A stretch of 64,000 nt of DNA from Halobacteria archaeon (GCA_036733165.1 DAINBB010000001.1:949-64948), one strand, 5' to 3'. Shown: positions 53,736 through 63,437, counted from the first letter of the stretch. Notes: generated by a model from the sequence alone, not told the origin. Numbers and translations: made by a program.

Positions 53736-54641
53736 TCACTTAAACTCCTCTATAATCTTCTCAGCTATTATCAACCCCGCCTTGTCCTGGGCCTCCTTTG
53801 TGGATGCGCCGATATGTGGTGTGAGCAAGATATTGTCAAGTTCCAGCAACGGTGAATCGGTAGGTGGTTCGGTTTCAAACACATCTAGGCAGGCTCCGCG
53901 TATGTTCCCGTCCCTCAAGGCGGTGTATAGGTCCTTCTCATCCACTATGCCCCCTCTGGACGTGTTTATCAGGATTGCACTGTCCTTCATCATCATGAGC
54001 TGTTCCATGGATATCATGCCCTTTGTCTGGGGAATGAGGGGGACATGGAGCGTTATGTAGTCAGAGGATCTCAGCAGGTCCTCCATCTCTATGTACTTTA
54101 CCCCTAGGCTCGCAGCGAGTTCTTCGTTCTTGTGCACATCGAAGGCGAACACCTTCATCCCAAATCCATTCGCTATCTTTGCCATATGGGAACCTATCCT
54201 GCCGAAACCTATGATGCCCAAGGTCTTTTCGTATATCTCTATCCCCTTCAGGGAATTCTTTTCCCATTTTCCATCTTTCATCGTGTTGTCAGAACGCACA
54301 ATGTTCCTCTCAAATGACAACAACATTGCGAAGACCAGCTCGGCAACAGACTCTGAAAGGGCGGTTGGGGAGTTTATCACCTTTATGCCCCTTTCCTCGC
54401 AGGCCTTGAGGTCTATGTTGTCAAGGCCCACACCTGCCCTTGCAACCAGTTTGAGATTTTTGCCAGACTCTATTATTTTTCTCGAAACCTTCGGCTTGCT
54501 TCTGACGACCAGGGCATCAAAGTTCTTAACCTTCTCGGCCAGACCGTCCTCATCAAGGCCTGTGGACACTTCAACTTCAAAGTTGGCCTTCAACTGTTCT
54601 ATCGCCTGTTCCGCTATATTCGATGCAATAAGGACCTTCAT
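53736..54641 (-). CDS. serA: D-isomer 2-hydroxyacid / 3-phosphoglycerate dehydrogenase without ACT domain
   Basis: RAGVGLDNID, GIIGFGRIG, NTSRG, LDVFETEP, TPHIGAST. Confidence 0.85.
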   Translation of the reverse strand: MKVLIASNIAEQAIEQLKANFEVEVSTGLDEDGLAEKVKNFDALVVRSKPKVSRKIIESGKNLKLVARAGVGLDNIDLKACEERGIKVINSPTALSESVAELVFAMLLSFERNIVRSDNTMKDGKWEKNSLKGIEIYEKTLGIIGFGRIGSHMAKIANGFGMKVFAFDVHKNEELAASLGVKYIEMEDLLRSSDYITLHVPLIPQTKGMISMEQLMMMKDSAILINTSRGGIVDEKDLYTALRDGNIRGACLDVFETEPPTDSPLLELDNILLTPHIGASTKEAQDKAGLIIAEKIIEEFK

Positions 54642-55045: not shown

Positions 55046-56050
55046 ATGCATAACTTTATTTCCGTGAACAGAAAAGTTAGGTTAACCATAATTGTAGCGC
55101 TTATATTAGTGATATCCGCATCATCAGGATGCATATCATCCGGACAGCCCAGCACGACCACATCCTCGCCAGACACCGACGGGGACGGATGGACTGACCA
55201 GGAAGAGGCGCTGGCCGGCACAGACCCTAACAATGTCGATTCCGATGGCGACGGTTACTACGACCCCGTGGATCCCAATCCTTTGATACCACAGACAACG
55301 GCGCCGCCCACGACGACGGCAGCGCCTACGACAGCGGCCCCGACGACGACCGCAGCTCCGACGACGACGGCAGCGCCTACGACAGCGGCCCCGACGACGA
55401 TGGCGCCGCCGGAGTTTCCGGACCTCAGTGGACTTGTGTATGCCTTTGAAAACTTTCATTCCTCTGACTCGACATGTTGCCGTACAGGTGACATAATTGA
55501 GAAGGTGGAGGACCTAGGTGCCCAGACCGTCCTCTATGAGGAAAGCTACATCTCTGCCGAATTGTTAAACAATCGCGGGATAGATGTGCTTTTGTTCGGA
55601 ATGACCACAAATAACACGTTGACCGATAATGACATCGATGAGCTGTACCAGTATGTTGTCGATGGGGGAATAATATGGTTGGCCACGGTCACGCCGGGGT
55701 ACAACGAGCTTCTTGGCCAATTTGACACATCCGTGGCCTTCGTAAGCAAAACGGAAGTCGACGAGAAGTCATTCTACTGTCATGACGAGGACTGGATATC
55801 GTATGACGTCGATGAATTCTATTTGGCGACCATCTATACATTCAGCAATCTTGAGACCTGGGAGACCACCATACATGTTTACGGGTATGATGGTTACTAT
55901 GACTGGCCCCAAGTGATCTACAAGAATATCGGTGATGGATACATTTTCTGCAGCAATATGGCGTTTTGTAAAAACGAATACTATTATCTGAAGGACAACC
56001 TGACAATATTCAATAACATCGCCTATATGATAGGAAGCCTATTGGACTGA
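55046..56050 (+). CDS. Surface lipoprotein with DxDGDG Ca-binding repeats, Thr/Ala/Pro linker and C-terminal alpha/beta domain
   Basis: SSGC lipobox-like site, DTDGDGWTD..E and DSDGDGYYD repeats, PTTTAA repeats. Confidence 0.75.
   Translation: MHNFISVNRKVRLTIIVALILVISASSGCISSGQPSTTTSSPDTDGDGWTDQEEALAGTDPNNVDSDGDGYYDPVDPNPLIPQTTAPPTTTAAPTTAAPTTTAAPTTTAAPTTAAPTTMAPPEFPDLSGLVYAFENFHSSDSTCCRTGDIIEKVEDLGAQTVLYEESYISAELLNNRGIDVLLFGMTTNNTLTDNDIDELYQYVVDGGIIWLATVTPGYNELLGQFDTSVAFVSKTEVDEKSFYCHDEDWISYDVDEFYLATIYTFSNLETWETTIHVYGYDGYYDWPQVIYKNIGDGYIFCSNMAFCKNEYYYLKDNLTIFNNIAYMIGSLLD
55310..55400 (+). repeat. Intragenic 40-nt exact direct repeat, period 51 nt, in the PTTTAA linker
   Basis: acgacgacggcagcgcctacgacagcggccccgacgacga at 55310-55349 and 55361-55400. 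Confidence 0.9.
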
Positions 56051-57307: not shown

Positions 57308-57758
57308 CCTAGAGGGAATGCTCACGGACAGGACTGTCATACTGGGTGTCGGAAACGACATCAAGGGGGACGACGGCGTAGGATCCTACATAGCCAGGCG
57401 ATTGGAACGCCAATTCAGGTCAATAGACGGGAAATCCGTGCCTGAGGCGTATGCCTACGAGGTCATATCACATAAACCTGACATCGTGCTTATCATCGAT
57501 GCTGCAAAAATGGGGTCACGACCCGGGTCGGTGGGTGTGTTCACAAAGGAGGATGTCAAAAACATCAGTTCTTCAACCCATTCAATGCCCCTCTCAATGC
57601 TATCCAAACACCTGGAGAAAGAAGCTGGTTGCATGGTATATATAATCGGCATTGAACCAATGGAGACAGAGTTCGATATGAAGCTGACCGACACTGTAAG
57701 AAAAAGCGCCGACAATATGGTAGAGATACTGAAAAGCTATAAATCATCAAAGAAATGA
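57294..57758 (+). CDS. hycI: Hydrogenase maturation endopeptidase (HycI-like)
   Basis: GVGNDIKGDDGVG, IIDAA, STHSMPL. Confidence 0.88.
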   Translation: MKLSDLEGMLTDRTVILGVGNDIKGDDGVGSYIARRLERQFRSIDGKSVPEAYAYEVISHKPDIVLIIDAAKMGSRPGSVGVFTKEDVKNISSSTHSMPLSMLSKHLEKEAGCMVYIIGIEPMETEFDMKLTDTVRKSADNMVEILKSYKSSKK

Positions 57759-57780
57759 TAATATACACGTGGGGATGTGA

Positions 57781-58581
57781 ATGGACAAGATATCTTTTTT
57801 ATTGAACAAGACCAAGAACAAACTTCTTTCACCTATATACTCCACCTATCAGAGAAGATTGATTGAAAACGTCAAAAAGAAAGAACCTCCTGTCCATATC
57901 GGATTCATACTGGACGGAAACAGGAGATATGCCACGGCAAAGGGGCTTGACAGGAAAATAGGACACATGTTCGGCGCCAAGAAGGTCGAGGAACTGCTCG
58001 AATGGTGCTTTGACATCAATATCAAGGTAGTCACCCTATATGCGTTCTCCACAGAAAACTTCAACAGGCCCGAAGAGGAGGTCGGGGCCATAATGGACCT
58101 TGCCAAGGAAGAGTTCGAAAAGGTCCTCACCAGCAAGAGCATACATGAAAACAAGGTAAGGGTCAAGGCCTTGGGGGACTTGGACAAACTGCCAAGAAAA
58201 CTTCTTGAGGCGATCCAGATAGCCGAGGACAACACCAAGGACTACTGCGATCATTTTCTCAATGTCTGTGTCGCATACGGCTCAAAGAACGAGATAGTCT
58301 CGGCCGTAAGGAATATAGCCAAGGACGTGAAGGAGGGAAGGCTTGGACCCGATGAAATAACATACAATGACATCAGGAAAAATCTCCTTACCAATGAATA
58401 TCCGGACCCTGATATAATAATAAGGACCGGTGGGGAGTCGAGGCTCTCCAACTTCATGCTGCTGCAGGCCGCTTATGCGGAGCTCTTCTTCATAGATGTG
58501 TACCTTCCGGAGTTCAGGAAGATAGACTTCCTAAGGATAATGAGGGATTACCAACGGGCAGACAGAAGATATGGAAAATAA
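57781..58581 (+). CDS. uppS: Polyprenyl diphosphate synthase (cis-prenyltransferase)
   Basis: ILDGNRRY, YAFSTENFNRP, IRTGGESRLSNF, RRYG. Confidence 0.96.
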   Translation: MDKISFLLNKTKNKLLSPIYSTYQRRLIENVKKKEPPVHIGFILDGNRRYATAKGLDRKIGHMFGAKKVEELLEWCFDINIKVVTLYAFSTENFNRPEEEVGAIMDLAKEEFEKVLTSKSIHENKVRVKALGDLDKLPRKLLEAIQIAEDNTKDYCDHFLNVCVAYGSKNEIVSAVRNIAKDVKEGRLGPDEITYNDIRKNLLTNEYPDPDIIIRTGGESRLSNFMLLQAAYAELFFIDVYLPEFRKIDFLRIMRDYQRADRRYGK

Positions 58582-58632: not shown

Positions 58633-58923
58633 TCAATTGTCACCTTCTGAAGGGTTTGTTGCCTTTTTCCATACCTCAGAATGACCATATAGCCTGGATA
58701 CGTACCTTACATTGTCGTCTCCCCCCTTGCACAGGAGGAAAAGCGGCGCTATCAGCTCGATCGCCTCCCTGTCAAGCACTGCCCTCTCTTCCGCAGGGAG
58801 GGAATAGTAAGTTCGGAGCATCTCGTCCCTGTCCATCTTTATCAACTCTGAAATCTTCATAATCTCACCTTTATATGGATGGATTATCCATCCATATATA
58901 AATCTTTCTATCTTGTTTTGCAT
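58633..58923 (-). CDS. Hypothetical protein
   Basis: ORF in a gap between convergent/divergent neighbours; probable start at MKISEL after AGGTGA; no motif recognised. Confidence 0.5.
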   Translation of the reverse strand: MQNKIERFIYGWIIHPYKGEIMKISELIKMDRDEMLRTYYSLPAEERAVLDREAIELIAPLFLLCKGGDDNVRYVSRLYGHSEVWKKATNPSEGDN

Positions 58924-59009
58924 AACATGTTTACATCGAAGATTGGAAAGAACGTCAGCATCTTCAACCGATTACAAAAGATTTATATATTTAAGAATTA
59001 GGTTCTCAA

Positions 59010-60380
59010 TTGATTTATATGCACATTATCGAATCTGATGGTGTAAAGATAGTTTTATCCGAACTTAGGGATTCGATGTCGGAATTGGGAGATGTCTATT
59101 TACGTACAGACATCAATGAACCCCCTGCACCTTCCCTCAAGGTCGAACAGGCCACAGATTCCATAAACATGATAAGGGAGATACAGGACCCCAAGTCCAA
59201 CATCCTATGCACATCGCATTGTTCTGACCCCTCAAAAAGCATTGACAAGAACTTTGAGATACTCAGGAGCACCTTGGAGAAACAGTTGGACCCCATATCT
59301 CCGGAGATAAACGGCTGTGTCTTCGTTAACAGTCTTGAAGAACTATCCAAAGCGAACAAGAAGTATCAGGGACATCTCATATTTCTCGAGAACATCAGGA
59401 AGACCGTGCCGGAGGAGACGAGTCCTCCAGACAATTCGTCCGAAACGGAGCTGTGGAAGTTTCTCAAGCCATATACCAAGATAAACAATGCATTGTCGTG
59501 CTGCCACAGGGACCATCTATCGTTGAGGGTCTTCACGGATGGTTGCTATTGCAGCGACATCTTCATCAAAGAGCTCCAGACGATCACAGACCTCTATTCT
59601 ACAAGTGAGAGGGATGTGAAGATATGGGGCATCGCAGGGGCAAAGAGGGACAAGCTTGATTCCATCTACCTCACAGAGGGCAGGGACGACCTGATAGTCG
59701 CCCTCAATGGCGGACCTATACTGGTCCTGCTCGTATGGGCGTTGTCAAAGGAGGCAAGGTCCCTTTCCAGGATCCTTCCCGCCAATATCGGCAAGGAGAA
59801 CAGGGAACTGATAGAGAAGTTCTTCGGCGGGTCCAAATGGGACATGATAAAGAAAAAGGCCCTGAAGATAGCAAAAATGATGGAAGAAGGGTCCATAGAG
59901 GTGATACTTCCGATAGATGTCATCGTGGATTCGGAAGGCGAGGAGAAGACCGTCTCCCTCTCGGCGATAAACAAGGGCAGATTCCTGTCGCTGGGACCCA
60001 ACTCACTGACCATGCTCTCCGACATATCGGCCAGGAGGCAGTTCGTGCAGACCGGTTCGGTAGAGCCGACGAACTATCTTTCCCGCGGCGAGGAGTCAAC
60101 AACATTCAACCTGGTGAGGGAGGTCCTGAGACATGCCAAGAGCATGTACATCAACGGTGGCGACACCGTCTCGGACATCAGGACGTTCGAGAACGCCTTG
60201 AAGCTGCAGAAGTTCAGGGACAAGAAGATGTTCATAGAGCTTGCAAGCGGAGGATTCGTTGTCAAGTGGTGGAATTACCTCAACTCTTGCAAGAACATGC
60301 CCCCGGGCGTAAGGTACGCCAGCATAGGATCCTTCAAAAGCCTCTACGACAAATGGGACAAGGACAAGGGCTTCGACTGA
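59010..60380 (+). CDS. Divergent phosphoglycerate-kinase-family protein
   Basis: RTDINEP, SH, LENIR, HR, GAK, GGDT and SGG occur in PGK order, with many substitutions. Confidence 0.7.
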   Translation: MIYMHIIESDGVKIVLSELRDSMSELGDVYLRTDINEPPAPSLKVEQATDSINMIREIQDPKSNILCTSHCSDPSKSIDKNFEILRSTLEKQLDPISPEINGCVFVNSLEELSKANKKYQGHLIFLENIRKTVPEETSPPDNSSETELWKFLKPYTKINNALSCCHRDHLSLRVFTDGCYCSDIFIKELQTITDLYSTSERDVKIWGIAGAKRDKLDSIYLTEGRDDLIVALNGGPILVLLVWALSKEARSLSRILPANIGKENRELIEKFFGGSKWDMIKKKALKIAKMMEEGSIEVILPIDVIVDSEGEEKTVSLSAINKGRFLSLGPNSLTMLSDISARRQFVQTGSVEPTNYLSRGEESTTFNLVREVLRHAKSMYINGGDTVSDIRTFENALKLQKFRDKKMFIELASGGFVVKWWNYLNSCKNMPPGVRYASIGSFKSLYDKWDKDKGFD

Positions 60381-60414: not shown

Positions 60415-60642
60415 ATGGAGCCCCCGGACGCTGACAGGATAGGGAGGGAGCACAGGGACAGGCTAAAGAAGGTGAAAAGGGATCAGAGAAGGGCCTTTGA
60501 GAACATCGTCAAGCCGCCAGATCCAAAATCATGCAGATATTGCAAGCACTATGTGACGAAGGATGGGGAAAGCGGGTATTGCCTATTATGGAAAAAGGAT
60601 GTCAGGAACACAGATTCCTGCGATAGATTCTCAAGGGTATGA
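60415..60642 (+). CDS. Small Cys4 putative metal-binding protein
   Basis: CRYC-x12-C-x12-C; stop overlaps the next ATG (ATGA). Confidence 0.6.
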   Translation: MEPPDADRIGREHRDRLKKVKRDQRRAFENIVKPPDPKSCRYCKHYVTKDGESGYCLLWKKDVRNTDSCDRFSRV

Positions 60643-61697
60643 TGATGATTAGAGACCTTATAAAAAAATACAAAAACGCCCTCTCGATACTGTTCTCCAT
60701 CCTAATGTTGGTCCTGATATTGAGGCTTGTAGGTTTCAACGAGATGCTGAATGCCATCAGGGCCATAGACCGGGAGAACCTGACGCTTGCACTCCTGTTG
60801 TACGCCGCCTCCCTGTTGGTGGCAACCCTGAGATGGGACAGGATAATAGATGTAACAGAATACAATTCAAGATTCAAGACATTACTCCAATACTCACTCA
60901 TAGACAAGTTCGCGAACTCCTTCTTTCCGACGTCCGCAGTGGGTATGGCCCTAAGGTCCTACCTTCTGAACAAGGACTATGAAATGCCCAAGTCGGTGGG
61001 ACTTGCCACCATAGTACTCGACTACGGCGTCGACATATTCGGGACCTTCATGCTCTCAGTGCCTTTTTTCTTTATCATCAGGTCCGAGCTCTCAGAGTCC
61101 CTGATGCACACCTTCAGGACAAGCCTTCTGACAATAGGCATAGTGTCATTCATCGTCTTCGTGATCAGCTACTCGGAGCATGTGTTTGTGAGAACCAAAT
61201 ACGACAAGAAGATCAATCTCAGGGAACGTTCAAGATTGTTCAGCAAAATATCAGAACTGGGTATCAGCAAGAAGTTCATCGAGTTCTCGGAGACCTTCAG
61301 CCTGATATTGGAAAGACCGATAATCTTTTCCAACGCCCTCTTCCTTACGTTCTTCAAGGTCATGCTGGACGCCATAAGGATATCCATACTCTTCGAGGCC
61401 TTTGGTGTATCGGTGCCGTTCTACTACTTCATCCTGTTCGACAGCACCTGGACGTTCCTTGCGCCGCTGATGTTCACCCCTGGAGGTGTGGGCGTCATAG
61501 AGACCGGCAGGATAGCACTTTACTCATTGATACCCAACGTGAGCGTGGGAGTGATCACACCTGTCGTGTTCATAGACAGGCTGATCACATACTGGCTGAC
61601 CGTGTTCATCGGAGCGGTATTGTTCTTTCACAAGGGTATTGACATCAGCAGTTTGGGCGGGAAGGGCATCTCAGGTGCCGATGTCAAGCAAACGTAG
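60639..61697 (+). CDS. Second UPF0104 / lysylphosphatidylglycerol synthase TM flippase-like protein
   Basis: RW, NSFFP, TPGGVGVIE, DRLITYW motifs. Confidence 0.85.
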   Translation: MMMIRDLIKKYKNALSILFSILMLVLILRLVGFNEMLNAIRAIDRENLTLALLLYAASLLVATLRWDRIIDVTEYNSRFKTLLQYSLIDKFANSFFPTSAVGMALRSYLLNKDYEMPKSVGLATIVLDYGVDIFGTFMLSVPFFFIIRSELSESLMHTFRTSLLTIGIVSFIVFVISYSEHVFVRTKYDKKINLRERSRLFSKISELGISKKFIEFSETFSLILERPIIFSNALFLTFFKVMLDAIRISILFEAFGVSVPFYYFILFDSTWTFLAPLMFTPGGVGVIETGRIALYSLIPNVSVGVITPVVFIDRLITYWLTVFIGAVLFFHKGIDISSLGGKGISGADVKQT

Positions 61698-63437
61698 GGT
61701 CTCATCGCTGGGCACGCCATTCTCATCGCAACCCCTTCTCATGTAATACTCGCGAATGTGCCTGTGCAGTTCCCCCCGCTCCAATCTGATCCCTTCAAGC
61801 TCTGAATCGAAGAATCTGTCCGGCAGGTCGTCCTCATCCGTTCTGAGGCCCTGTCCGATGTTGAACATCCTCTGAAGCGTCCATATCCTCTTCGCGGACC
61901 ATTCCAGGTCCCCCGGACAGTACTCCTCGCCCGTGACCATCCTGACGATGTCGGCGGCCCCTTCGAAGCTCTCGTCTATGAGCGACCTGGATGCGAATCT
62001 GCACATTATCAGGCAGTCCATCAGAGTCATGGTGTCCTCCATCAACATGAAAGGCGCCACCTTGCCCTCAAGCGTGTCCGGTCTCATCCTTCTCTGGAAT
62101 ATCTCCCTTACATACATCGGGGCCCTCAGATGGCAAGCCCCGCGATTTGACAGCGAATAGGCCAGCGCCATGCCCTGTGTTATCCTGGGATCGTACCCGG
62201 GCAGCTCCATGCCCTTGACATGGATCGCGAATTCTTTGCCGCCATATCTTTCAGAACTTCTCATCACGCCCCTTGAGAGCACCTCCCCCAGTCCTTCGCC
62301 GGTGCCCATCTTTCTCACAAGGTCGATCACGGCCCCCATGTCGCCCCATGCGACATGCTTGTCCACAAGCCCTTTCTCGGACGCTTCCATGAGCCATGAC
62401 AACGTGACCCCTGCCGATATCGTGTCGATGCCCAGCTCGTTGCAGAGCTCATTGACCTCCACAAGCGCCTCCACATCGTTGTTGAGTATGTTCGAACCCA
62501 GGGCGAATATGGTCTCATACTCGGGGCCTTCTGTCCGGACACCTCCGCATACGCTGTAATGCGAACAGCCGATGGGACAAGAGAAACACGCCCTCCTGCC
62601 CTTCCAGATCGACTTGTCCAACTCCGTTCCGGATATCTTGTCTATCTCCCCGAAGCGGCCCAACTGGTAGTTTCTGGTAGGAAGTCCCCCGGCATGGTCC
62701 ATGGTCATTCCCGCGTTGGTGGTACCATAGTCTATGAAGACCCTGGTGACCTCCTTCGACATCGACATTGCATCCCTTATGTGCGAGGAGAGCGCTTCCC
62801 CGTCATGCACCTCAACAGGACCGGTGCCTCTGACGACAATGCCCTTGAGGTTCTTGCTGCCGAATACGGCACCCGAACCGCCTCTTCCGAGGGACCTGTA
62901 GACATCGCTCTTAACATTGGATATCAAGGCCTTCCTTTCCCCTGCCGGACCAATGACCAGTGTCTTGGATTCGGCATCGTTCTCGGATGTGAGCATCCTT
63001 GCGGCGGTCTTGACCCTCTTGCCCCACACATGGCCCGCGGGCCTGATATCGATCTCATCGTCATCTATTGAGATATAGACCGGATCGTCCGCACTTCCCT
63101 CTATGATAATGCCGTCATGGCCCGAATATTTTAGCTCTGGTCCGAAATGGCCGCCGCAATGCGACTGTAGGAAATAATTTGTAAGGGGGGAGATCGTGGC
63201 AAGACAGAATCTGCCGGAAGAGACTGCAGGGGTGCCCGTGAGGGGGCCTGTGAATATGAACAGCTTGTTATCACCCGAAAGGGGGTCCATCGGTGTCTTG
63301 AGCTCCCCATAGAGATATTCGGTCGCAAGCCCGACACCCCCAACAGACCGCCTCAATATGTGCCTTGCCAACCGTTCCTCCCTTATATCCCCGTCATCAA
63401 GGTTGACCCTAATGACCTTGCCCTTCCATCCAAACAT
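61671..63437 (-). CDS. aor: Tungsten-containing aldehyde:ferredoxin oxidoreductase family protein
   Basis: GPLTG, ISPLT, GRGGSGAVFGSKNLK, CFSCPIGC, EGPEYET, DTISAG, GYDPR, NRGACHL. Confidence 0.95.
   Translation of the reverse strand: MFGWKGKVIRVNLDDGDIREERLARHILRRSVGGVGLATEYLYGELKTPMDPLSGDNKLFIFTGPLTGTPAVSSGRFCLATISPLTNYFLQSHCGGHFGPELKYSGHDGIIIEGSADDPVYISIDDDEIDIRPAGHVWGKRVKTAARMLTSENDAESKTLVIGPAGERKALISNVKSDVYRSLGRGGSGAVFGSKNLKGIVVRGTGPVEVHDGEALSSHIRDAMSMSKEVTRVFIDYGTTNAGMTMDHAGGLPTRNYQLGRFGEIDKISGTELDKSIWKGRRACFSCPIGCSHYSVCGGVRTEGPEYETIFALGSNILNNDVEALVEVNELCNELGIDTISAGVTLSWLMEASEKGLVDKHVAWGDMGAVIDLVRKMGTGEGLGEVLSRGVMRSSERYGGKEFAIHVKGMELPGYDPRITQGMALAYSLSNRGACHLRAPMYVREIFQRRMRPDTLEGKVAPFMLMEDTMTLMDCLIMCRFASRSLIDESFEGAADIVRMVTGEEYCPGDLEWSAKRIWTLQRMFNIGQGLRTDEDDLPDRFFDSELEGIRLERGELHRHIREYYMRRGCDENGVPSDETLRLLDIGT

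Follow-up and report, generated by a model that had tools for sequence, protein, structure and literature searches.

We identified, in the 64-kb stretch of DNA that was analysed (the window), a gene whose product is probably (at roughly two chances in three) a lineage-specific, extremely divergent gluconeogenic phosphoglycerate kinase (PGK) of the Methanofastidiosales, including Theionarchaea, that has been heavily remodelled. An ordinary PGK role is likely because relatives of the protein keep the catalytic residues and several are encoded in operons with GAPDH. Few known enzymes are as conserved as PGK, which to our knowledge is effectively monofunctional. Here a lineage spanning an order has retained the fold and the residues of phosphoryl transfer, with about 40% of the near-invariant positions replaced. 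As a natural experiment, the family can show which residues a PGK cannot do without, above all in the nucleotide loop and in the Gly-rich motifs that close the hinge.

Gene model

The open reading frame as listed starts at TTG 59010 and ends at 60380 on the plus strand, specifying 456 aa. The start in 32 of 32 aligned homologues is the Met equivalent to ATG 59019 (MHIIES...). Because all homologues begin at this equivalent Met, ATG 59019 is preferred over TTG 59010; the listed frame is probably three codons overlong, giving a PGK-family coding sequence of 453 aa (59019–60380, plus strand) on the combined evidence of the ORF list, homologue starts, Pfam and AlphaFold2/Foldseek. Direct reading of the sequence revealed an A/T-rich TATA-like box, TTTATATATTT (58982–58992, plus strand), about 30 nt upstream of ATG 59019, which suggests that the PGK-like gene may have its own archaeal promoter and a leader that is short or absent. 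A bacterial promoter and terminator scan, whose promoter part covers sigma-70 sites only, gave nothing meaningful.

The protein belongs to the PGK family

The window protein matched Pfam PF00162 at 65.4 bits (E 6e-18; cut-off 27 bits) over profile positions 10–359 of 379, and 32 of 33 family members matched the same profile; canonical PGKs score 394–497 bits. The closest PDB sequence was a PGK, with an E-value of only 1e-6. Alignment of the family with canonical PGKs using hhalign yielded a probability of 99.8 and an E-value of 1.7e-27 over 333 columns at 23% identity. NCBIfam gave no match, a result that is only weakly informative because NCBIfam lacks a stand-alone PGK model and canonical PGKs match only a PGK/TIM fusion model, below its cut-off.

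An AlphaFold2 model generated with the family alignment as input had a pLDDT of 80.4 and a pTM of 0.80. When this model was compared with the PDB using Foldseek, the best 50 matches were all PGKs, with E-values down to 5.5e-19 and target-normalised TM-scores of 0.62–0.78 over about 450 columns. The highest TM-score, 0.78, was obtained with Pyrococcus horikoshii PGK (2CUN), with which the model shares the two-domain fold, and the top E-values (5e-19 to 1e-18) were obtained with bacterial and eukaryotic enzymes (human PGK1, 2WZB and 2X13; Geobacillus, 1PHP). The predicted structure has the complete PGK fold of two domains, in which an N-terminal 3-phosphoglycerate (3-PG) domain and a C-terminal nucleotide domain are joined by a hinge. 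Compared to archaeal-type PGK the window protein is about 45 residues longer; it has a hairpin at the N terminus, 11 residues inserted in the C-domain and a C-terminal tail modelled with low confidence. We conclude that the protein is a member of the PGK family; the PGK fold claimed in the first-pass annotation held up in this structural comparison, as the model resembled PGK structures alone among the best 50 matches.

A divergent family confined to one archaeal lineage

A search of 5.8 billion proteins returned about 58 family clusters with lengths of 450–470 aa and identities of 48–92%. Their named sources were exclusively Methanofastidiosia, Methanofastidiosum, Theionarchaea or generic (eury)archaeal MAGs, and the source annotation of family members was 'phosphoglycerate kinase'. 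Beyond the family, the next matches were ordinary PGKs at 22–25% identity. A HMMER scan of 1.84 billion cluster representatives recovered the family as one 50% cluster (772 bits) plus fragments, with canonical PGKs scoring no higher than 61 bits and 242 proteins in total at E < 1e-3. Mean column identity within the family was 63% and about 90 columns were invariant, values from which the PGK-like protein is evidently under strong purifying selection. Searches of the literature on Methanofastidiosa and Theionarchaea for PGK, glycolysis or gluconeogenesis yielded nothing of relevance, and no biochemical data on the enzyme turned up in them.

A 279-aa 'PGK' cluster (P0058) was considered as a more distant clade and rejected. 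It sits on an ERZ2647878 contig with a coverage of 1.5, which has the same synteny as one of the Methanofastidiosum loci, yet most of its genes are broken into fragments; the cluster is an artefact of assembly or frameshifting, a piece of a gene on a frameshifted Methanofastidiosum contig of low coverage, and not a separate member of the family.

Two trees were constructed, a quick tree of 150 rows and a careful tree of 63 rows. The family was monophyletic in both (100/100), and its stem of about 2.0–2.1 substitutions per site was the longest branch of the tree. The point of attachment fell between the archaeal-type (HQ[GS]R, GGGH[ST]) and bacterial-type PGK clades rather than beside Thermococcales; positions of this kind between clades tend to attract long branches. 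A grouping of the family with the Thermococcales PGKs, which vertical descent would predict, was not rejected by an AU test (p 0.24), and in the large tree, which was poorly searched, the topology constrained to the Thermococcales grouping scored even better. The family may have descended vertically and passed through an episode of drastic change. The earlier description of the protein as lying far outside normal PGK sequence space agrees with a distance of about 2 substitutions per site from all other PGKs.

Conservation of active-site residues

Residue counts were taken from an alignment of 33 family members, with equivalents given in human PGK1 numbering; the residue roles are those established by structural work on PGK. 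All motifs below are on the plus strand, and each motif quoted in the first-pass annotation was present in the translated frame where it had been placed.

In the N-domain, the DFNVP equivalent is DINEPP (59109–59126), in which the family-invariant residues D34 and N36 are the equivalents of D23 and N25. The motif PSLKV places K44 (59139–59141) at the position of the catalytic Arg38, which is basic throughout the family (Arg in 17 of 33 members, Lys in 16). The SHxGR equivalent is SHCSD (59214–59228), with an invariant H70 (H62) and with D73 at the position of Arg65. LENIR (59385–59399) contributes invariant N128 and R130 (R122), and HRD (59505–59513), within NNALSCCHRDHLS, contributes invariant H166 and R167 (H169 and R170). 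Five of the seven 3-PG contacts (D23, N25, H62, R122 and R170) are therefore family-invariant, the other two being R38 and R65. The R65 position is variable (Lys in 12 members, Asp in 7 and an aliphatic residue, namely Ile, Leu, Val or Ala, in 14), and the seven members with Asp are exactly the subclade of the window protein. Loss of Arg65 is not diagnostic because the PGK of solved structure from Pyrococcus (2CUN) also has Lys at this position, in THQGKP, a residue that it has in common with many family members.

In the C-domain, AGAKRDK (59634–59654) provides K212, the equivalent of human K215, and K215, which corresponds to human K219 via a one-residue deletion. The K219 equivalent is invariant in all 33 members, as are those of G237, G238, G373 and T375, and the K215 and D374 equivalents are each present in 31 of 33. 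The equivalents of G213 and A214 are retained, G383, G384 and G414 are present in every member, and G415 in 31. The canonical nucleotide loop WNGPxGxFE (N336, P338, G340 and E343) is absent. In its place is the remodelled loop QTGSVE (60048–60065), a version of the family pattern Q-[NT]-G-S-x-E-[PQE] in which Q347, G349, S350 and E352 are invariant; the P338, G340 and E343 equivalents are unconserved, and S350/E352 is a new invariant pair. At the N336 position Asn is found in 26 members and Thr in 7, the window protein having T348. The GGGDT equivalent is NGGDT (60153–60167), which retains the Mg/phosphate ligands D385 and T386 and has the first Gly (G372) fixed as Asn. In ASGGFV (60243–60260), the STGGGA equivalent, the changes of Ser to Ala, Gly (G396) to Phe and Ala to Val are fixed family-wide, as are the change of GGAK to AGAK and the presence of Ser327 in place of the Asp that is otherwise invariant in the adenine-pocket motif (L)D(I)G.

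Using columns at least 95% conserved in a set of 20 canonical PGK sequences as the near-invariant positions, 27 of 47 were retained in at least 30 of the 33 family members and 20 of 47 were changed. The replacements fixed across the family cluster in the nucleotide/phosphate motifs of the C-domain and are less frequent on the acceptor side. The most derived members are those in the subclade of the window protein, where K44, D73 and T348 are additional changes, each at a contact position. The changes listed in the first-pass annotation are thus all real; those at R38 (to Lys), R65 (to Asp) and N336 (to Thr) are features of this subclade and not of the whole family. Similarly, its proposal of a rewired substrate site was right in that conserved substrate-site motifs are altered, and needs amending in that the fixed changes lie mainly on the nucleotide/phosphate side of the cleft. 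Because WNGPxGxFE is a conserved motif and not a formal definition of the family, loss of the loop counts against a typical PGK, not against membership of the PGK family.

The family combines features of different PGK types. It shares the D-x-N-x-P, H(62), LENxR, HR and GAK motifs with Thermococcales-type PGK, from which it differs in its remodelled nucleotide loop, in identity (about 18–23% to the Pyrococcus/Thermococcales enzymes) and in Pfam score (65 compared to 394 bits). Whereas archaeal-type PGK has GGGH[ST], the family has GGDT, as do bacterial PGKs. With the bacterial and eukaryotic enzymes it also has the K215, K219, D374 and T375 equivalents in common; it departs from them in the absence of R65, in the three unconserved loop positions and in the substitutions of G372 and G396.

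Coupling to GAPDH in two sublineages

Comparison of the family-bearing loci identified no order-wide synteny around the PGK-like gene. In Methanofastidiosum it lies between topA and an NTP_transf_2 gene, in one Theionarchaea-type clade it is next to a DUF835 gene on the opposite strand, and in other lineages its neighbours encode a tRNA synthetase, DUF354, a PMT_2 glycosyltransferase or CARDB surface proteins. The order in the window is ScpA-ScpB-HycI-UPPS-PGK-like-orf75-flippase-like-AOR(-)-ADK, and this order is conserved in relatives at 74–92% identity.

In two sublineages, with 54–55% identity to the window protein, the gene is coupled to GAPDH. In three loci (L009, L027 and L028) the end of the PGK-like gene, with its stop codon, and the beginning of a type II phosphorylating GAPDH gene share 8 nt (ATGATTAA); the GAPDH is 336 aa in length and matched NF003251 at 432 bits and TIGR01546 at 420 bits. 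In two others (L011 and L015) the PGK-like gene is followed, via TGAATG, by a PGM/PMM gene and then, via ATGA, by GAPDH. Phosphorylating GAPDH uses the PGK product, 1,3-bisphosphoglycerate being the shared intermediate. This adjacency and translational coupling resemble those of the gap-pgk operons of bacteria and some archaea, with the differences that the order in the family is pgk-(pgm)-gap and that the GAPDH is of the archaeal type II. The GAPDH-linked members have Arg at position 38, Lys at 65 and Asn at 336, like Pyrococcus PGK. Neither the window nor most lineages of the family have this coupling. The PGK-like gene is not adjacent to GAPDH in the subclade of the window protein, and Methanofastidiosum also has a type II GAPDH, encoded elsewhere in the genome. 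In Thermococcales, PGK and type II GAPDH serve gluconeogenesis, and glycolysis bypasses PGK via GAPOR or GAPN.

Proposed function and alternative explanations

If the protein is a gluconeogenic PGK, its N-domain would bind 3-PG with the Asp/Asn, His, Arg122 and Arg170 equivalents that it has kept and its C-domain would bind Mg-nucleotide. Hinge closure would then place K/R44, K212 and K215 around the transferred phosphoryl group, and 3-PG and a nucleoside triphosphate would be converted to 1,3-bisphosphoglycerate, which type II NAD(P)-dependent GAPDH would reduce to glyceraldehyde-3-phosphate for gluconeogenesis. The reaction is presumably that of EC 2.7.2.3, 3-PG + ATP = 1,3-BPG + ADP, with ATP as the presumed nucleotide, and the K44/D73/T348 subclade of the window protein presumably behaves like the GAPDH-linked members.

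The first-pass annotation favoured either a PGK-fold kinase with a different acceptor or a pseudo-enzyme. In the first case the protein would be a neofunctionalised kinase acting on another carboxylate or phospho-acid, with an undetected canonical pgk alongside. The isolation of the family in sequence (772 bits within it, at most 61 bits to other PGK representatives) would fit such a history, as would a long stem followed by conservation at a normal rate, the pattern expected after a functional shift; the R65 position is also unconserved, and the subclade of the window protein has Lys at R38 and Asp at R65. However, five of the seven 3-PG ligands are invariant, R38 is always Arg or Lys, Arg65 is missing from Pyrococcus PGK too (Lys65), phosphorylating GAPDH is translationally coupled to relatives in two sublineages, and no conserved neighbour points to another pathway. 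Moreover, a second or canonical PGK was found neither within the 64-kb window nor in 789 kb of fetched family-bearing loci, and the 58 loci contained one PGK-like copy each. A query with Pyrococcus PGK was uninformative on Methanofastidiosales, as the 120 matches listed were all from Thermococcales. Among the 10 archaeal-type PGK representatives nearest Thermococcales none was identified as from Methanofastidiosales, those with a name being Thermoplasmatota, Lokiarchaeota and Promethearchaeota. The term paralog in the first-pass annotation was thus an assumption. On the evidence of the window and the 789 kb of loci, a canonical pgk presumably does not coexist with the PGK-like gene, and we regard a different acceptor as unlikely. 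A catalytically dead enzyme or a regulatory PGK-fold protein might account for the low Pfam score and the alteration of several canonical motifs, but it is very hard to reconcile with invariant K219 and T375 equivalents, K215 and D374 equivalents in 31 of 33 members each, about 90 columns invariant across an order-level family under strong purifying selection, and coupling of the gene to GAPDH in operons; we consider it highly improbable.

A true PGK with a changed phosphoryl donor or nucleotide specificity, for example for another NTP/NDP, is also improbable. It is more plausible than a different acceptor because of where the fixed changes lie: the family-wide swaps sit in nucleotide/phosphate motifs (QxGS.E, NGGDT, A.GGFV and Ser327), and the acceptor site of the N-domain is largely intact. 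Nevertheless, the G213, A214, G237, G238, K219, D374 and T375 equivalents are retained, Asn is kept at the N336 position in 26 of 33 members, and specificity is not predictable from motif change alone. That the chemistry has changed in one way or the other, by altered donor or nucleotide specificity across the family or by a non-3-PG acceptor in the K44/D73/T348 subclade, seems to us rather unlikely. Because the fixed family-wide changes are mainly in nucleotide/phosphate motifs, the nucleotide site and not the acceptor site is, from the alignment, the part of the protein most likely to behave differently.

On the reading that we prefer, a divergent gluconeogenic PGK, thresholds tuned to canonical PGKs could miss the gene, and gluconeogenesis would then seem to lack a step when the metabolism of Methanofastidiosa and Theionarchaea is reconstructed. 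An altered nucleotide specificity, if true, would make the protein a biochemically novel form of a textbook enzyme; otherwise the gene is simply the pgk of the organism, and its importance is modest unless biochemistry shows altered specificity.

Neighbouring genes

The first-pass annotation had grouped the PGK-like gene with two small genes and a flippase-like gene. This grouping proved to be local synteny only: adjacency to the flippase-like gene is confined to the subclade of the window protein plus one other clade, a convergent case, and a functional link between the two genes was rejected on this basis. The flippase-like gene (60639–61697, plus strand; LPG_synthase_TM/TIGR00374) is overlapped at its start (ATGA) by orf75 (60415–60642, plus strand), which encodes a 75-aa Cys-rich microprotein. 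The pair is conserved in the subclade, with identities of 40–67% for orf75 and 52–77% for the flippase-like gene. An orf75 orthologue in locus L013 had a weak match to the Pfam family HIPIP, and the orf75 ATG is preceded, at a distance of about 25 nt, by a TTTTAAAT box.

The spacer between UPPS and the PGK-like gene is unusually long (437 nt) and contains a 96-aa open reading frame on the minus strand (58633–58923) with no Pfam or NCBIfam match. This frame is open in the two nearest relatives (L018 and L019) with 46–47% amino acid identity, compared to 92% for the PGK-like protein, and is missing from relatives at 74–77% identity, in which the spacers are 50–207 nt. Further upstream, a 165-aa hexapeptide-repeat gene separates HycI from UPPS in relatives (5577–6074 in L012; 6509–7006 in L013). 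The window does not contain this gene, its HycI–UPPS gap being 22 nt (57758–57781).

Downstream of the flippase-like gene is a gene for a 588-aa AOR-family tungsto/molybdopterin enzyme (61671–63437, minus strand) that is syntenic in relatives. Only its N-terminal 220 residues matched the AOR model (210 bits; cut-off 868), and its identification as GAPOR was rejected (24 bits compared to a cut-off of 1300).

A short 301-aa 2-hydroxyacid dehydrogenase resembling D-3-phosphoglycerate dehydrogenase is encoded at 53736–54641 on the minus strand. It scored 381 bits against TIGR01327 (cut-off 454), and it lacks the C-terminal regulatory part because only model positions 1–299 of 525 are covered. The product of the gene at 55046–56050 (plus strand) looks secreted and is 334 aa in length. 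It has TSP3-like DxDxDG repeats of the calcium-binding kind and a long linker rich in Pro and Thr, of the type (A/T)PTT, and its orthologues in L012 and L013 match TSP3_bac.

Outside the window, one of the loci examined (GCA_023249275.1 contig, 1–21000) has a type II GAPDH gene amid genes for primase subunits, an SNF2 helicase and a DDE transposase and many unannotated small open reading frames. This region could be mobile or viral-like and carry a gene of central metabolism.
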